Shown one piece after another: positions 15,756 through 22,658 of a DNA stretch of 64,000 nucleotides. Made by a program: the position numbers and the translations under genes. The stretch's first letter is position 1; every line of letters begins with the position of its first letter. This DNA is from Naegleria gruberi (taxonomy: Eukaryota): NCBI GenBank assembly GCA_000004985.1, contig GG738846.1, one strand, 5' to 3'. The notes below the pieces were generated by a model. It did no database searches and was not told the origin of the DNA. It saw only the letters and a program-made list of their open reading frames with translations.

Positions 15756-18290
15756 TTATTGAACTAATTTAGAGTGATACTTGTTCATGTACATGGATAA
15801 AGCCCAGATTGGGAAGATATTTCTATAGTTTGTATAGGTAATCATACAATTGTGATTGAAAACACCAGAAATGGATTCTTGTGGGAAGTCACCATTTGGT
15901 AATTGTTTTCTCATCAAACAATAGATACCCTTTTCAATAACCTTAAGATTTGGATAATTTGAAGTCATCAAGGCGAGTAAAGACCAAGCAGTACTGATAA
16001 CACGTGAAGTTTCAGCATGTGAATAACGGTGAGTCACACATGAAAGATAACTTTCTCCCCAACCACCATCTTCCATTTGTTTGGCAACAATGAAATCACA
16101 TCCACGCTTCAAAGCTTGTGAATTACCATAGTTGAGTGTTGGATCAGCACTGACAATGGCAGTAGTGGCAAACCATGTACCATAACAGAAACAGACAGCC
16201 CAACCACCATACCAACCACCTTCTTCCATTTGTTTTCCTTCAATTACTTTGATAGCATGTTTGATACTATCATCAATCATTGGAACGTATGGAGATTGTG
16301 GGAAGTGTTTCTTGAATTGCAACAAGGCAGTAATACAGGCACTTGTACATTCAGTGTGTGGATAGTCAATCATAATTTCACCATACAAAGCAGCAGGATT
16401 GATAATTTCAATCCATGAGTGTGTACGAGACAATTCATAAGTTGCCCAACCACCATTTGTACCACCATTGAACATGGACAAAATGACACGGACAGCATCT
16501 GTTAATCTTTCTTCACTGAGAATTAATTCATCACTAGTTAATGGATTCATTTCATTCTTTCCATAGTATTCTTGTAATTGTGTCTTGAGTTTTTCAATGT
16601 TTTGTAAATTGGATTCAGAGCTATTGGTTTGAGTTCCCTTAATATTGAACAAATCGTACAAGGTCAAAACAGCCTTCAAACCTTCAGCAGTACAGTCAGA
16701 AATTGGCCAACCGTGATCACGTGTAGAGAATGGCCAACCACCCTTAGATTGATGTCTATAATATTCCATTCTATTTGGAACGTCTTCCTTGACTTGAGTG
16801 AAATTGATAAAGTTGTAAGCATTCAAAAGCGAATTCAAATGCTCATTCTTAAATGATCCTTGACATGAAATTTGATTATCTTGGTTCTTGAATCTCTTGT
16901 AATATTCACAAATAGCTTGAGAAGCAAAAGCAGTATCCCACAATTGAGAACCATTATAACCTTGGAATTTCATACCATCATCAGATAACCACAAATAGTC
17001 ATAAACTCTATCTAAATGTTTGTTGAAAAGTTCACTATCTGATCCGTCACTGAAAAATACTGATAACATGTTCAATACCTTATTGACAGGACCAATACAG
17101 ATATGATTGGTGACACTATCTTCATATTTGATATGTTCAATACACTTCTTCAATGAAGCATTTCTCAAGAATGAGAAATTAATATACTTTTCATAAACAG
17201 TCAAAACACTAGCAAATTTAGAATAGAGTTGAGTGAATGGATGGTAATTGTCACGTGGATTAACATATGATCTATACTTTGACCAAGGTTGATTTTGATA
17301 ACTTGTCTTGGAGACTTGATCGTATAATTCATTTCTCAATTGTGAAATAATTGGATCAGTTTCAGCATTGGCATAAACCTTCTTGATACCATACAAGTAT
17401 GCCATTGGTAAATAAACAACACGACAATGGCACCACCATTTACCTGGTTGAATATATGGGAACCAATCAGGTAATAACCATAATTCACATGGAATTGGAT
17501 CAATACAATCCCAATCCATCAAACCCAAACAACATAAATATAATTTAGCCCATTGTGGTGCTCCCAAAGCACCGTTAGCAGGTTCCTTACTAAGGAATTC
17601 CAATGTTAATTTCATGCATGAATGATCTGGACTAACACCCAACAATCTCAATGCAACATAATTCAAAACTGTACCAAAAATGGTTGAGTGACCTTCAATA
17701 TGAAGTCCATAACCTCCATCTTGATTTTGTTTAGACAAGATGTATCTAACAATTTCATATTCAAATGGTTTAGGTAATCTCTTTTGACAAATATATAACA
17801 CAATCACAATACCAGGTAATAAAAACATTGGACCACCATAATCTCCGGCCCAATGTCCATCTTGTGTTTGAACACTAGAATAGAAATCAATAGCTTTCAA
17901 TATACTAGCATCAACTTGATGTTCATCTAAATTAATTATATAATTATTACTCTTATTAAAGATGTATTTTAATTTGTCATCATTATCGGCATTAGTAGTT
18001 GCTTGGTCATCATCATTGGTGGAACTAATATTACTTGATGTTGTACCCACAACAAGAGGATGATTATTAATATAAGTGATTGGATCTTCAAAATTTGAAG
18101 GCTTGTTTAACAAGTGTTTATCAACATTTGATTGTTCTTCTCCCGATTGTTTTAATAAAGATTGTGGGAATGGAATCCAACGTTGACGACCTTCTTTGAC
18201 GACTAATCTCCATTCTATTGGACCGGATTGGGAATAGTCATAGGAATCGAATTTAAATTCCTCCAATAATTTGTTAAGATTGATTGACAT
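15756..18290 (-). CDS. Oxidosqualene cyclase (cycloartenol/lanosterol synthase)
   Basis: ATG at 18290..18288. N-terminal WRL...GRQRW motif; catalytic DCTAEG motif (ISDCTAEGLKAV); repeated QW motifs (QNQDGGYG, QMEDGGWGES); GHSTIFGTVLNYVALRLLG. Single exon of 844 aa with an Asn/Ser/Asp-rich insertion near the N-terminus. Confidence 0.85.
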   Translation of the reverse strand: MSINLNKLLEEFKFDSYDYSQSGPIEWRLVVKEGRQRWIPFPQSLLKQSGEEQSNVDKHLLNKPSNFEDPITYINNHPLVVGTTSSNISSTNDDDQATTNADNDDKLKYIFNKSNNYIINLDEHQVDASILKAIDFYSSVQTQDGHWAGDYGGPMFLLPGIVIVLYICQKRLPKPFEYEIVRYILSKQNQDGGYGLHIEGHSTIFGTVLNYVALRLLGVSPDHSCMKLTLEFLSKEPANGALGAPQWAKLYLCCLGLMDWDCIDPIPCELWLLPDWFPYIQPGKWWCHCRVVYLPMAYLYGIKKVYANAETDPIISQLRNELYDQVSKTSYQNQPWSKYRSYVNPRDNYHPFTQLYSKFASVLTVYEKYINFSFLRNASLKKCIEHIKYEDSVTNHICIGPVNKVLNMLSVFFSDGSDSELFNKHLDRVYDYLWLSDDGMKFQGYNGSQLWDTAFASQAICEYYKRFKNQDNQISCQGSFKNEHLNSLLNAYNFINFTQVKEDVPNRMEYYRHQSKGGWPFSTRDHGWPISDCTAEGLKAVLTLYDLFNIKGTQTNSSESNLQNIEKLKTQLQEYYGKNEMNPLTSDELILSEERLTDAVRVILSMFNGGTNGGWATYELSRTHSWIEIINPAALYGEIMIDYPHTECTSACITALLQFKKHFPQSPYVPMIDDSIKHAIKVIEGKQMEEGGWYGGWAVCFCYGTWFATTAIVSADPTLNYGNSQALKRGCDFIVAKQMEDGGWGESYLSCVTHRYSHAETSRVISTAWSLLALMTSNYPNLKVIEKGIYCLMRKQLPNGDFPQESISGVFNHNCMITYTNYRNIFPIWALSMYMNKYHSKLVQ

Positions 18291-18733: not shown

Positions 18734-19303
18734 TTAGAGTTCGTGCTTCTTGGCCTTGTTCAATTCATTCCAGAAAAGCATCTTAAAGTCAGAAGCTTGT
18801 GGACCATAAGGGTAACAGAATCTGAAGAGTGGGTTAATAGTAGCTTGAGAATCAGAACCATTCTTAATGCTGAGGAATGGATGTGGGTTGGATCTACCGA
18901 GAGTAGTTTGTGAATCGAAGAAAGTGTACCAGAACAAACTGAAGAAACAAGCAAAGAAGCCCATAGCGACTGGGACGGAGATAATGATACCACCCAAGAA
19001 GTTAGAGTACCACAATGGTTCACCTTCTCTGAATTCGAATGGCTTCATGTCTAATTTGTGTCCAGTTGTAGCATAGATACCAGAGACTTGATCAAAGAAA
19101 CCTGGAGTCTTGTGTTGCTTGTGGAGATTTCTGGTGGTTGGGGCAATCATGATCTTAGCATTTGGGTGTTTCTTGATCAAAGTAGCGAGTTGTCTCATGG
19201 CTGAAACGGTAAAAAATTAATGCAAATTGAACAAATATTTACAACTAAGCGAAAACATTGTTCAAGTGAGATGCTTACCTGGAACGATAGTCTTGTTGTT
19301 CAT
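18734..19303 (-). CDS. Small single-pass membrane protein of unknown function; 2 exons 19303..19279 and 19200..18734
   Basis: 25-nt first exon ATGAACAACAAGACTATCGTTCCAG followed by GTAAGC, and a TTTCAG acceptor (intron 19201..19278). One transmembrane segment LGGIIISVPVAMGFFACFFSLFWYTFF. Very strong C/G-ending codon bias (TTC, AAG, ATC, GGT, CCA) unlike its neighbours. Confidence 0.5.
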
Positions 19304-20017
19304 TTTTTTTGTTATGTTATGCTGGAAATGTAGGCAACAACTTTTGTCCAAATTTATACCTACAATCCAGTTAACCTCGATTACAAAAATACGCCTACAA
19401 ACCTGCTATTTCACCTGTTTTGTAGCCGATGTTAAGTGTCACATTATTTCTAGTAATTTTAAAACCATCAAAACGAAGTTTTAAAAAAAACTAATTTTGT
19501 CGTTACAGTATCGATAATGAATTTGACCAGAAAAGTTTCCATCGAAAAGATGACTCAATTTTACATAATACAACAAGGATGATAGCTAATGATACGATCA
19601 AACAGTTTCTTTTTAATCAATAGAGATACAATTGTAGAATTTGTAAGAATTACCAATTAGAATCTCTCTTCAATACTTTTCAATTACAGTTAGTGTTGAA
19701 ATTTGTCTTTGAATGGCTCAGATCCATCGATACTAATTATTTAAGGAGTTTTCAATGATATTTTGCCGCTCCTATTGAAGAAAACCCTCAATTTTGGATA
19801 GTATATTAGAAGTTCTGTTCCAACATTGTGAAATTAGTTTGCAGTTATCACTCTATATAATTGTTGTAACTTTACAAAAAACTATTATTGGAGAGATGGT
19901 GAACTTTGTGTGCAGAGAATGAAATAAATAATTTCCCACCCCTTTCATTTTTATTAAAACAACAAAAAAAACAAATCAAACAATTATTAATATAATAATC
20001 TAAAACAATCGATTAGA

Positions 20018-21079
20018 ATGTCCACAACTACTAATAATAACAATACTACTCTTACTGGAAAATTGATAATGAGAAAAAACAAGGAAAAGATTGAAAAGGT
20101 TTTCCAATTAATTAATTTCGGAGACTTGAATGAATCTGTTAGAGAATTTGTTCAAGATTTGCCATCTGCTACTAGTTCTGATGAAGTGCTATTGTCCACT
20201 TTCAAGATCAAGGCTATTGTTCCATCTTCTGAGAAGAGAAAAACAGTTTATGTAATTAATGATGAAAATGATTTTTCTGAAATGATGAAATTAATTCAAG
20301 AAATTCCACAAGATAAACCAATTCTTTTCAGAGTAATGAAGAAGAAATTGAATCATGAAAAGAAGGAAAGAAAGGAAAAGAAAGAAAGAAAGGTCAAGCT
20401 TCAATTGACTGAAGAACAATCCCAAAGTCTTTCCGAAAAGAAGCAACAAGTTGAATTATTGAAAGATGAAATTAAGATGAAGAAGGAACAAATCATGACT
20501 ATCAAATTTGAAATGAAATCTTTAAGAAAGTCATTCCATCCTGCCAATGTTAGCATTGACCCAAATGTTCCATCTACTATTAAGTCGTCTCCAAACAAGG
20601 AAGAAAGACTTAAACTCAAACTTGAAAAGAAGGAAGAAAAGAAAGCATTTAAATTGGAAAAGAAGTTACTCAAAGCTCAATACAAGCTTGAAAAGATTGC
20701 ATTGAAGAAGCAAAGAAAGCAACAAGAAAATGCTTCTACTCAACCAGAATCTGTTTCAACTGTCACAACTGGTAGTGAACCAACTGCTCCAATTAACGTA
20801 CCTGTTGTTGAACCAGTAATTGATACTGTACCACCAGTTCAACAAGTAAGAACTGAACCAATTTCCAACAATGCTGAGATTGTCACACCAACTGTTGATG
20901 AAAAGCTCTTGTTGAAGCTCCAAAAGAAGGAACAAAAGCATGCTTGGAAAATGGAAAAGAAACTTGAAAAGCAAATGATCAAAGCTCAAAGAAAATTGGA
21001 AAAACAAGCTCAAAAGCAAGAGAGAAAGGAAAGAAAATTGTTGGAAAAGCAACAAGTTGCCACTCCTTCTCAAAATTAA
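20018..21079 (+). CDS. Lys/Glu-rich coiled-coil protein with internal repeats (KLEKKEEKKAFKLEKK... repeated)
   Basis: ATG at 20018. Single ORF of 353 aa. Two copies of an approximately 40-aa K/E-rich repeat separated by a Pro/Val-rich linker. Confidence 0.45.
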   Translation: MSTTTNNNNTTLTGKLIMRKNKEKIEKVFQLINFGDLNESVREFVQDLPSATSSDEVLLSTFKIKAIVPSSEKRKTVYVINDENDFSEMMKLIQEIPQDKPILFRVMKKKLNHEKKERKEKKERKVKLQLTEEQSQSLSEKKQQVELLKDEIKMKKEQIMTIKFEMKSLRKSFHPANVSIDPNVPSTIKSSPNKEERLKLKLEKKEEKKAFKLEKKLLKAQYKLEKIALKKQRKQQENASTQPESVSTVTTGSEPTAPINVPVVEPVIDTVPPVQQVRTEPISNNAEIVTPTVDEKLLLKLQKKEQKHAWKMEKKLEKQMIKAQRKLEKQAQKQERKERKLLEKQQVATPSQN

Positions 21080-21689: not shown

Positions 21690-22658
21690 ATGCAAACAAC
21701 TCAACTCACTTTCGATCAAAGTAAATCCTCAATTCTCGTCTCTTTAGATAAGAAGAAATCTGATCAACATTGTAAACTTCTTTTGGAACAACTTGTTGGA
21801 AAGTTTCAATTCAGAAATAACAAATATACCTTCAGTGGATCATATGATCTTGCACAGTGGTTGGTTCTCTCTTTTGATTCAATGGTTAAGGAAGATGAAA
21901 AGTTTTTCACAGAGATTGTCATTCCAATAGTTGCATACATTTCAATTGTGGATGATGCTTGTGATGAGAAGATTACTGACATGTCTATTGCAGAGATGAA
22001 AGAACATTGTAAGATATTTAGAGGAGAAACAGTTCATGCTTCTCACTCTGCTCTCAAGATGGGACAATTTGTGTACAATCTAATCAGGGAAGAAAGATTC
22101 GAATGTATTAGAAGAAAGGTTTTGGAATTCCTGGTGACTGGAACTAATCTAATTGAAAAGGCAAAAAATAATAATGGACCAATCACTGAAGAAATATTGG
22201 CTAACTTTTTAGAGGAAAGAAGAATTGACTCCATGGCCTCTCTTTTCTTTACTATCAACAATATCTTTAACAAGATTCCATTAGAAATTGAAAGATGCGA
22301 TAATGTGCTCATTCAATATAATCACATGGCATGTGATACGATAAGTTTATTGAATGATGTTGCCTCCATTGCAAAAGATACCCAAAAGAAACTTGTCAAC
22401 AATTATGTAATATTGAATAAGGGAATGAAAGAGAACTTATCGTACAGTGAATTGAAACAACTCCCAATTGAAGCATTTGAATCTTCCGTGAATGAAGTTT
22501 TAGAATTAATCAATGCTAATTTGTTTCAAATGCAAACTATCAAATCCTCCAATCCATCCTTCTCCACACAATTCGGTTCAATCGATGAGGTCATGAAGGG
22601 ATACTGTAATTACAATCTGCAATTACAATATCAATTTTTTCTTTTGATAATATCTTAA
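21690..22658 (+). CDS. Class I terpene synthase (microbial-type TPS)
   Basis: Asp-rich motif IVDDACDE (DDxxD/E) and downstream NSE/DTE-like motif NDVASIAKD. Size about 320 aa, typical of microbial-type TPS. First ATG at 21690. The C-terminal 20 aa may be intron read-through (GTAATT at about 22606). Confidence 0.55.
   Translation: MQTTQLTFDQSKSSILVSLDKKKSDQHCKLLLEQLVGKFQFRNNKYTFSGSYDLAQWLVLSFDSMVKEDEKFFTEIVIPIVAYISIVDDACDEKITDMSIAEMKEHCKIFRGETVHASHSALKMGQFVYNLIREERFECIRRKVLEFLVTGTNLIEKAKNNNGPITEEILANFLEERRIDSMASLFFTINNIFNKIPLEIERCDNVLIQYNHMACDTISLLNDVASIAKDTQKKLVNNYVILNKGMKENLSYSELKQLPIEAFESSVNEVLELINANLFQMQTIKSSNPSFSTQFGSIDEVMKGYCNYNLQLQYQFFLLIIS

Follow-up and report, generated by a model that had tools for sequence, protein, structure and literature searches.

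A micro-exon gene of Naegleria gruberi for an abundant mitochondrial protein, predicted to span the membrane once and tentatively likened to B12D/NDUFA4

In mammals, cytochrome c oxidase has NDUFA4 (COXFA4) as its 14th subunit; plants have B12D proteins. Mammals have NDUFA4, NDUFA4L2 and C15orf48. Extra supernumerary subunits with a single transmembrane (TM) helix are found in the respiratory complexes of Tetrahymena, Euglena, Toxoplasma and trypanosomatids (compare PMC7987180). Here we analyze a gene on the minus strand of a 64,000-nucleotide (nt) stretch of Naegleria gruberi DNA (contig GG738846.1 of assembly GCA_000004985.1; hereafter the window), which runs from position 19303 down to 18734 and is made of three parts: exon 1, an intron and exon 2. 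The gene was singled out by an original prediction based on the letters of the DNA. We propose that it is a correctly spliced, highly expressed nuclear gene for a precursor of 163 amino acids (aa), the protein 35-2, which would be abundant in the inner membrane of mitochondria and cross it once; we put the probability of this reading at about 0.6. Like the protist supernumerary subunits, 35-2 is short, nuclear-encoded and lineage-restricted, has one TM helix and no Pfam family, and is as abundant in purified mitochondria as core subunits of oxidative phosphorylation (OXPHOS). Those subunits have been placed in complexes, whereas 35-2 is likened to them by analogy only. At most, the 35-2 family is a variant of this class of small single-pass supernumerary mitochondrial subunits.

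The coordinates of the gene and its parts are listed in Table 1. Splicing gives a coding sequence of 492 nt, and the product matches, from end to end and with 100% identity, XP_002682863 of N. gruberi NEG-M (EFC50119, UniProt D2UZA9), whose database name is 'differentiation-specific protein 35-2'. The start codon, ATG1, is the first in-frame ATG past an upstream stop and directly follows a run of seven A. Reading from ATG1 with the intron retained ends after 13 codons, and retention would yield a truncated protein because the intron holds an in-frame TGA. The original prediction had read the 25-nt exon, the 78-nt GTAAGC...TTTCAG intron and the 163-aa product off the sequence, and all three are confirmed. 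It had further held that the open reading frame (ORF) finder misses the true N-terminus. This is the case, since the only ORF that the program lists for the gene, 154 aa long, begins at Met10, downstream of the micro-exon; two public ORF-called entries also begin at an internal Met (P0010, 154 aa; P0002, 139 aa). The model is the same as that of NCBI, and the splicing, the gene and the mitochondrial location of its product are already in public records. Because the product equals the annotated protein and the architecture is kept in two other species, the gene model is more than chance. No second copy of the gene was detected by tblastn in the 64-kb window, which has a GC content of 33.6%.

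The micro-exon is conserved among close relatives. We compared the orthologous loci of N. lovaniensis, on contigs L001 (PYSW02000067) and L002 (PYSW02000012), and of Willaertia magna (L003). In N. lovaniensis the annotated protein is only recovered if a 22-nt exon 1 (ATGAACAAGAGCATTGTACCAG) is spliced to exon 2 over an intron at the matching position, 160 nt long on one contig and 154 nt on the other. W. magna has a 31-nt exon 1 (ending ...GCTCCAG), a 71-nt intron and then exon 2. The donor comes after ...CCA G in each of the three species, the intron is in phase 1 (in both orthologues exon 1 ends with CCAG and the intron opens with GTA), ATG1 is preceded by an A-run, and exon 1 encodes the peptide MN(N)K(T/S)I..P, with an Ala at the junction. 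The introns themselves are unrelated in sequence and differ in length. In N. lovaniensis and in W. magna, the stretch of exon 2 before the conserved PGFFD motif is free of ATG, which makes exon 1 indispensable in both. The first exon claimed at the outset is thus kept in position and phase, and its comparative proof is new here. Two paralogues, P0005 of N. lovaniensis (L004:2001-2644) and P0006 of N. fowleri (L005:2001-2903), have no micro-exon; each has a single phase-0 intron (104 nt and 387 nt, respectively) between SGM and YES, inside the conserved segment that precedes the TM helix. Paralogue groups can therefore be distinguished by intron position, and since the paralogues lack the micro-exon, it is specific to the 35-2 orthologue group and older than the split between Naegleria and Willaertia.

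The exon 1 peptide is also found in a public entry that resembles complementary DNA (cDNA). This entry (P0009; UniParc UPI00002424AC; 169 aa) belongs to the same 90% cluster and corresponds to about 19150-19370 on the minus strand of the window. It reads ...NLDKNSLPLKFPNTKK-MNNKTLVP-IIITPTTRNLH..., in which the exon 1 peptide is joined to the coding sequence and the NLDKNSLPLKFPNTKK side is translated 5' untranslated region (5'-UTR) homologous to the region upstream of the gene. P0009 lacks 16 residues of the window protein, AMRQLATLIKKHPNAK. A variant allele, strain or paralogue with a phase-0 donor (CCA before GT) and an acceptor in exon 2 between AAG and ATC would fit this gap; the same pair of sites would be out of frame in the window gene.

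Two further observations concern the related loci. The second N. gruberi paralogue (P0007; XP_002682622, 'predicted protein, partial') lies on the same 1.0-Mb scaffold outside the window. It is annotated as a 124-aa fragment that starts exactly at the PGFFD motif, and its presequence-encoding 5' part was probably overlooked by the annotation. The two N. lovaniensis contigs both hold the orthologue together with neighbouring genes (Pro_isomerase, DHHC), with identical coding sequences, introns of unequal length and small differences in the flanks. They probably represent a pair of haplotypes, or else a segmental duplication of recent date in the assembly.

The codon usage of the gene departs from that of its surroundings. 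As a comparison set we used the 34 other ATG-to-stop ORFs of at least 150 aa in the window, with p values from Fisher tests. The GC content at third codon positions (GC3) is 0.485, compared with a mean of 0.293 (standard deviation 0.032, maximum 0.366) in the 34 ORFs (z = 5.9). TTC is used 14 times and TTT 3 times (pooled TTC fraction of the other ORFs 0.39; p = 5e-4), and AAG is preferred to AAA by 11 to 2 relative to the other ORFs (p = 0.022). ATC stands to ATT, and AAC to AAT, as 6 to 4, where the pooled fractions of the C-ending codons are 0.19 (p = 0.005) and 0.20 (p = 0.0075). GGT makes up 8 of the 10 Gly codons and CCA 11 of the 12 Pro codons. The original prediction had the direction of this skew right and its counts slightly low (TTC/TTT 12/3, AAG/AAA 10/2). 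The sharp contrast that it drew with adjacent genes holds in the window and is common to the orthologues: GC3 is 0.49 in N. lovaniensis (0.31-0.37 in the neighbouring genes) and 0.31 in W. magna (0.09-0.26). In the paralogues the bias is weak or absent (GC3 0.37, against 0.30-0.41). This distribution agrees with the view that the major isoform, expressed at a high level, is the 35-2 group.

Proteomic data place the protein in mitochondria. Horváthová et al. (2021; PMC8134430) used OptiPrep gradients to separate the organelles of N. gruberi; of the 4198 proteins that they quantified, 946 form a putative mitochondrial cluster defined with 376 markers. XP_002682863.1, with the exact 163-aa sequence, is listed in their Supplementary Data 2, Sheet 1 (mitochondrial), with 7 unique peptides, 44.8% coverage, functional category 18 and the entry 'unk' for both BLAST and HHpred. 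Its median log2 label-free quantification (LFQ) values in three fractions are 27.06, 29.18 and 31.39, rising with mitochondrial enrichment (PMC8134430). In the densest fraction, the value of 31.39 lies among those of established subunits: ATP synthase beta (35.5) and alpha (33.4), COX Vb-like (32.35), NDUFV1 (32.2), QCR7 (32.15) and SDHA (31.9) are higher, and Rieske (31.3), cytochrome c1 (31.1), COX1 (30.6) and COX2 (29.8) lower (PMC8134430). By these proteomic data, 35-2 is mitochondrial, is about as abundant as core OXPHOS subunits and is present in amoebae. Because the LFQ value is comparable to those of the core subunits, it supports the abundance that had been inferred from codon usage, where a respiratory-chain or translocon type of protein was envisaged, and it answers the proteomics check proposed with it.

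The same table bears on what is annotated in the respiratory chain of Naegleria. Among the rows listed of Supplementary Data 2 (PMC8134430), the string 'cytochrome c oxidase subunit' occurs at least 8 times, and COX Vb is the only nuclear-encoded accessory subunit of complex IV. As far as these rows go, the majority of the small subunits of complex IV in Naegleria thus seem not to have been recognized so far. None of the rows listed carries an NDUFA4, B12D or MLRQ annotation, which we count in favour of the B12D link discussed below. The sole text match to 'MLRQ' among them falls on the opening residues of a thioredoxin-like protein, which is unrelated.

Matrix presequences are basic, acid-free and amphipathic, with Arg at -2/-3. 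The N-terminus of 35-2 conforms to this pattern. Residues 1-32 contain six Lys or Arg and no Asp or Glu, and an AlphaFold 2 (AF2) model has an amphipathic helix at residues 7-19. In 28 sequences of the family the variable N-terminus (mean 39 aa) is composed of 16.6% Lys and Arg and 1.4% Asp and Glu, compared to 11.1% and 10.5% in the mature part. It ends in R-x-[LFYI]-[QH]-[ST], with the Arg present in 26 of the 28, which places Arg at -2/-3 in an R-x-[FYL] motif of the type recognized by the mitochondrial processing peptidase (MPP) and Icp55. As composition, helix and Arg position follow the presequence rules, there is good support for the N-terminus being a matrix-targeting signal with an MPP/Icp55-type site at which it would be cleaved. 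Co-fractionation with mitochondria agrees with this assignment (PMC8134430, Supplementary Data 2, Sheet 1).

The remainder of the protein contains one hydrophobic segment only, with a maximum of 2.32 at residues 80-98 in a 19-residue Kyte-Doolittle profile (KD19). In the AF2 model the TM helix spans residues 77-102, with a predicted local distance difference test (pLDDT) score of 94-96, and pLDDT is 85-89 for residues 100-140; a model from 8 sequences had a pLDDT of 54 and was not usable. The single TM helix read by eye in the original prediction is thus borne out. We suggest that residues 1 to about 34 serve as the presequence and are cleaved near R32-N-L-H35. The mature protein of about 130 aa would then be anchored by the helix at residues 76-103, with a segment of about 40 aa on its N-terminal side toward the matrix and one of about 60 aa on its C-terminal side toward the intermembrane space. 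We infer presequence-dependent import and a single-pass inner-membrane topology with good support.

The protein belongs to a small family. A word-indexed protein search returned 8 relatives, and an exhaustive profile search of 1.84 billion cluster representatives returned 50 members at E <= 1e-3, 32 of them at E <= 1e-10; the word-indexed collection, searched again with the 32-sequence profile, gave nothing new. All 50 members are 57-243 aa long. Every member with an organism name is heterolobosean, namely N. gruberi (2 paralogues), N. lovaniensis (3), N. fowleri, Willaertia magna (3) and Acrasis kona, and the remainder come from metagenomes. We delineate a heterolobosean family with three paralogue groups, which is new here. 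Before the TM helix the family has the motif PGF.D / YEDP.Y.LD.KP.E.R.GQ, and K61, P62, E64, F65 and P70 are invariant across close relatives. The block after the helix reads WYT..D.Q.T..R.NPHPFL.I.NG.D in the 32-sequence alignment, with S112, N113, P114, H115, P116, F117, L118, K121, N122 and G123 invariant among close family members. The C-terminal motif in the same alignment is P.G...LFY.E[IL][EN].A.

To which larger family these proteins belong could not be told by eye, and Pfam, PDB sequence and fold searches were also without identification: neither the window protein, scanned against Pfam at E <= 10, nor any of the 32 aligned members had a match that reached threshold, and fold searches for the window protein gave no significant match. 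The only Pfam family matched by more than one member is PF06522, the B12D/NDUFA4 family. Residues 92-137 of the Acrasis protein (P0021) match positions 9-54 of its 54 positions (E 0.0058, 16.4 bits), and residues 93-131 of the N. fowleri paralogue match it with E 0.06 and 13.2 bits, both below threshold; the other 30 of the 32 aligned members have no match to it. A profile comparison with hhalign between the family and 12 verified vertebrate NDUFA4 sequences gave a probability of 42.7% (E 2.5e-4, 39 columns), pairing the TM helices with each other and R-S-N-P-H-P-F with R-N-N-P-E-P-W. To widen the B12D profile, we next added sequences of plant B12D, insect MLRQ and NDUFA4L2, each of which scores 79-91 bits on PF06522. 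The probability rose to 61.9% (E 7.6e-5) in an unchanged register of 39-41 columns, and such a gain is the behaviour expected of true remote homology. As a control, the columns of the NDUFA4 alignment were shuffled within the pre-TM, TM and post-TM blocks, or in the post-TM block only. None of 160 shuffles matched the real score of 28.6 (means 12-15, maximum 22.6).

The two families would then have several things in common. 35-2, like B12D/NDUFA4 proteins, is small and mitochondrial and, by inference, a single-pass protein of the inner membrane, and its family has multiple paralogous isoforms per genome. In both, the TM helix would be followed directly by a turn of the form [DN]-x-[QV]-x-[TW]-x-x-[RK]-x-N-P-x-P-[FW], which is the most conserved block of each and reads D-S-Q-T-T-L-G-R-S-N-P-H-P-F in 35-2. 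Within it, the acidic/aromatic NPEPW of B12D, where the conserved motif is NP-[DE]-V...[RK]-x-N-P-E-P-W, corresponds to NPHPF. The match is colinear yet below any accepted threshold, and we regard it as suggestive. A link to B12D/NDUFA4, with modules added on the N- and C-terminal sides, is proposed here for the first time and tentatively.

Other families of small inner-membrane subunits were tried and rejected. COX6A/Cox13 and NDUFB8 (ASHI) are, like 35-2, single-TM proteins, NDUFB8 with a presequence, and they resemble it in the motifs KPF.WGDG, LFWN and YPY..L.LE.GGD; these likenesses are superficial and are rejected by hhalign. The probabilities for COX6A/Cox13 were 7.2% (bovine), 0.6% (yeast) and 0.2% (Arabidopsis). 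In addition, the only stretch that aligned pairs the KPFE.R.G motif before the TM helix of the 35-2 family with a COX6A motif after the helix, and the two are not colinear. NDUFB8 gave 0.2-0.3% and no match to Pfam PF05821. For the candidates COX4, NDUFB5, NDUFB11 and NDUFB2, the hhalign probabilities were at most 7%. Searches of PDB sequences with the single protein and with profiles returned Kv channels, which are chance TM matches only.

Several observations weigh against this assignment or against parts of the overall picture. The best PF06522 score, 16.4 bits, is under the gathering score of 21.5 bits, which no member reaches, and the window protein has no Pfam match at E <= 10. The hhalign match covers 39-41 columns, about a quarter of the protein, and over half of these are TM helix. 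Some sequences of the broadened profile were validated by their Pfam scores only, and profile searches of PDB sequences did not retrieve NDUFA4. Canonical B12D proteins are about 80-90 aa long (81-88 aa in the verified sequences), have the TM helix near the N-terminus and carry no presequence; 35-2 has 163 aa, its TM helix at 76-103 and a presequence that looks cleavable. Its conserved pre-TM segment of about 40 aa and C-terminal extension of about 45 aa are without B12D counterpart. The mitochondrial scores of TargetP, PSORT and MultiLoc are weak (39, 26 and 25; PMC8134430). No study of Naegleria by BN-PAGE (blue native polyacrylamide gel electrophoresis), complexome profiling or cryo-EM was found in the literature. 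Finally, the name in the databases suggests that expression is confined to differentiation, but amoebae contain the protein in abundance.

These points raise the question whether 35-2 is related to B12D/NDUFA4 at all. It may be a heterolobosean-specific mitochondrial membrane protein, for example a supernumerary subunit or an assembly or organisation factor of ATP synthase, complex I/III, the mitochondrial contact site and cristae organising system (MICOS) or a translocase, and its B12D likeness would then be convergence on a TM helix followed by a proline-rich turn. We take this possibility seriously while holding it doubtful. It accounts for all named members being Heterolobosea, for the lack of any hit at a curated Pfam threshold or, by sequence or fold, in the PDB, and for PGF.D...KP.E.R.GQ and LFY.EIE.A, the most conserved motifs outside the TM helix, having no B12D counterpart. 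The abundance of 35-2 is compatible with any OXPHOS complex, and the authors of the proteome scored it 'unk' by BLAST and HHpred (PMC8134430). Convergence fits less well with a colinear hhalign match that grows when the B12D profile is made more diverse and that scores above every one of the 160 TM-preserving shuffles, or with two members that independently match PF06522 on the same segment, while no other Pfam family is matched by more than one member.

We give a B12D/NDUFA4-type core a chance that is close to even. In this assignment the TM helix and the juxtamembrane R-x-N-P-x-P-[FW] motif would form a very divergent B12D/NDUFA4 (COXFA4)-type module. Such a core would imply a structural accessory role in the respiratory chain: 35-2 may be bound to a respiratory complex at its membrane periphery, with complex IV suggested by analogy, in roughly stoichiometric amounts. 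The 35-2 orthologue group would be the major isoform, and the two further paralogue groups of Naegleria and Willaertia would be minor or conditionally expressed. A more far-reaching version, which we consider unlikely, is that the family is an expanded derivative, specific to Heterolobosea, of an ancestral B12D/NDUFA4 module, stoichiometric in cytochrome c oxidase or a supercomplex, whose three paralogue groups are exchangeable isoforms. One isoform, strongly codon-biased and micro-exon-bearing, would be constitutive, and the other two, weakly biased, could be swapped in at the amoeba-to-flagellate switch or upon a change in oxygen, paralleling the switch between NDUFA4 and NDUFA4L2 in animals.

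The database name suggests a different role altogether, in the change from amoeba to flagellate (for example in the flagellar apparatus or cell shape) and not in mitochondrial energy metabolism. Naegleria does induce a set of differentiation-specific (DS) messenger RNAs (mRNAs), and the cDNA-like entry P0009 could be taken in the same sense. In the published accounts, DS mRNAs are those that amoebae lack and whose induction is transient and at least 20-fold (Mar et al., 1986; Shea and Walsh, 1987), and four classical classes are described: a 7-kb class I RNA, alpha-tubulin, beta-tubulin and a 0.5-kb flagellar calmodulin RNA (PMC2114099, PMC2139841). None of these four is the 35-2 gene, whose membership in the DS set is supported, as far as those accounts go, by the database name alone. 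Searches of the literature and data found nothing that explains the name '35-2' in Naegleria or mentions XP_002682863, EFC50119 or D2UZA9, and the gene is not listed under its identifiers in two differentiation data sets. That mitochondrial fractions from cultured amoebae are rich in the protein speaks against strict specificity for differentiation, and its presequence-like N-terminus and TM helix speak against a role outside mitochondria; a protein with a mitochondrial role could in any case also be induced during differentiation. We consider the differentiation-specific role very improbable.

That exon 1 is unused, the upstream ATG and the intron being coincidental, and that translation starts at Met10 can be all but dismissed: an uninterrupted 154-aa ORF does open there with a still presequence-like MRQLATLIKK..., and the unmapped 44.8% peptide coverage is no proof of the N-terminus, but the exon 1 peptide and phase-1 junction are kept while the introns diverge, the orthologous exons 2 offer no ATG before the conserved domain, P0009 has MNNKTLVP contiguous with the coding sequence, and ATG1 follows the A-run seen in all three species and is the first in-frame ATG past a stop.

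Upstream of the gene, the motif GTATAAATTTGGAC is conserved as GTAYWWWTTTGRAC in the orthologues of N. lovaniensis and W. magna (about positions 2955-2972 of L001 and L002 and 2949-2966 of L003). Together with a TTTGTAA box on its upstream side, it lies 30-57 nt before the ATG in all three orthologues, in flanks that have diverged. The window has 1 match to GTAYWWWTTTGRAC where 1.7 are expected by chance, so that the motif is not enriched there and its significance lies only in its conserved position. A core-promoter or initiator element is one possibility for it, a piece of the 5'-UTR another.

The neighbouring genes are unremarkable and functionally unrelated: a triterpene cyclase, an ABC-F ATPase, a class I phosphoinositide 3-kinase, COG3 and a terpene-synthase-like ORF. 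The cyclase and the terpene-synthase-like ORF lie 3.4 kb apart and flank the 35-2 gene on either side, and this pairing of isoprenoid enzymes may be coincidental. Directly upstream of the gene, in divergent orientation, is a Lys/Glu-rich ORF (Table 1).

Table 1. Positions in the window of the 35-2 gene, its parts and selected neighbours
Feature	Position	Strand	Description
Exon 1	19279..19303	-	ATGAACAACAAGACTATCGTTCCAG, 25 nt: ATG, 7 codons and 1 nt
Exon 1 product	19279..19303	-	MNNKTIVP and first base of Ala9
Phase-1 intron	19201..19278	-	78 nt, GTAAGC...TTTCAG, 29% GC
Exon 2	18734..19200	-	467 nt including TAA stop at 18734-18736; residues 9-163
R-x-[LFYI]-[QH]-[ST] motif, R32-N-L-H35	19121..19132	-	end of basic, acid-free residues 1-~34
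Conserved pre-TM segment, residues 41-70	19016..19105	-	PGFFD...KLDMKPFEFREGEP; family alignments
Single TM helix, residues 76-103	18917..19000	-	FLGGIIISVPVAMGFFACFFSLFWYTFF; KD19 and AF2
B12D/NDUFA4-like segment (tentative), residues 80-120	18866..18988	-	TM helix and D-x-Q-x-T-x-x-R-S-N-P-H-P-F
Most conserved block of the family, residues 111-123	18857..18895	-	RSNPHPFLSIKNG; alignment
Conserved C-terminal segment, residues 132-163	18737..18832	-	P...YPYG...D.K.LFWNELN.AK; absent from canonical B12D
Upstream motif	19346..19359	-	GTATAAATTTGGAC; 43-56 nt before ATG
Triterpene (oxidosqualene-type) cyclase	15756-18290	-	SQHop_cyclase N and C domains, E 1e-38 to 1e-45
353-aa ORF	20018-21079	+	Lys/Glu-rich, repeated KLEKK/KKEEKK-type motifs, no Pfam match
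Terpene-synthase-family-2-like ORF	21690-22658	+	PF19086, E 4e-8

Nothing known is overturned by these results, which concern an ordinary gene and a modestly interesting orphan family and are useful to specialists without being surprising. They hold a lesson for annotation: a first exon of 22-31 nt in a highly expressed gene of an intron-poor protist is missed by ORF-based callers, and in N. lovaniensis and Willaertia an ORF-based call would lose some of the conserved domain along with the whole presequence. A paralogue is carried by N. fowleri, a pathogen of the same genus as N. gruberi. If 35-2 is truly an NDUFA4-like subunit, it would fill a gap in the poorly known inventory of OXPHOS accessory subunits in discobids and provide a defined, lineage-restricted target for complexome and cryo-EM work. 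Should the isoforms indeed be exchanged, regulated isoform exchange in complex IV would extend to Discoba.

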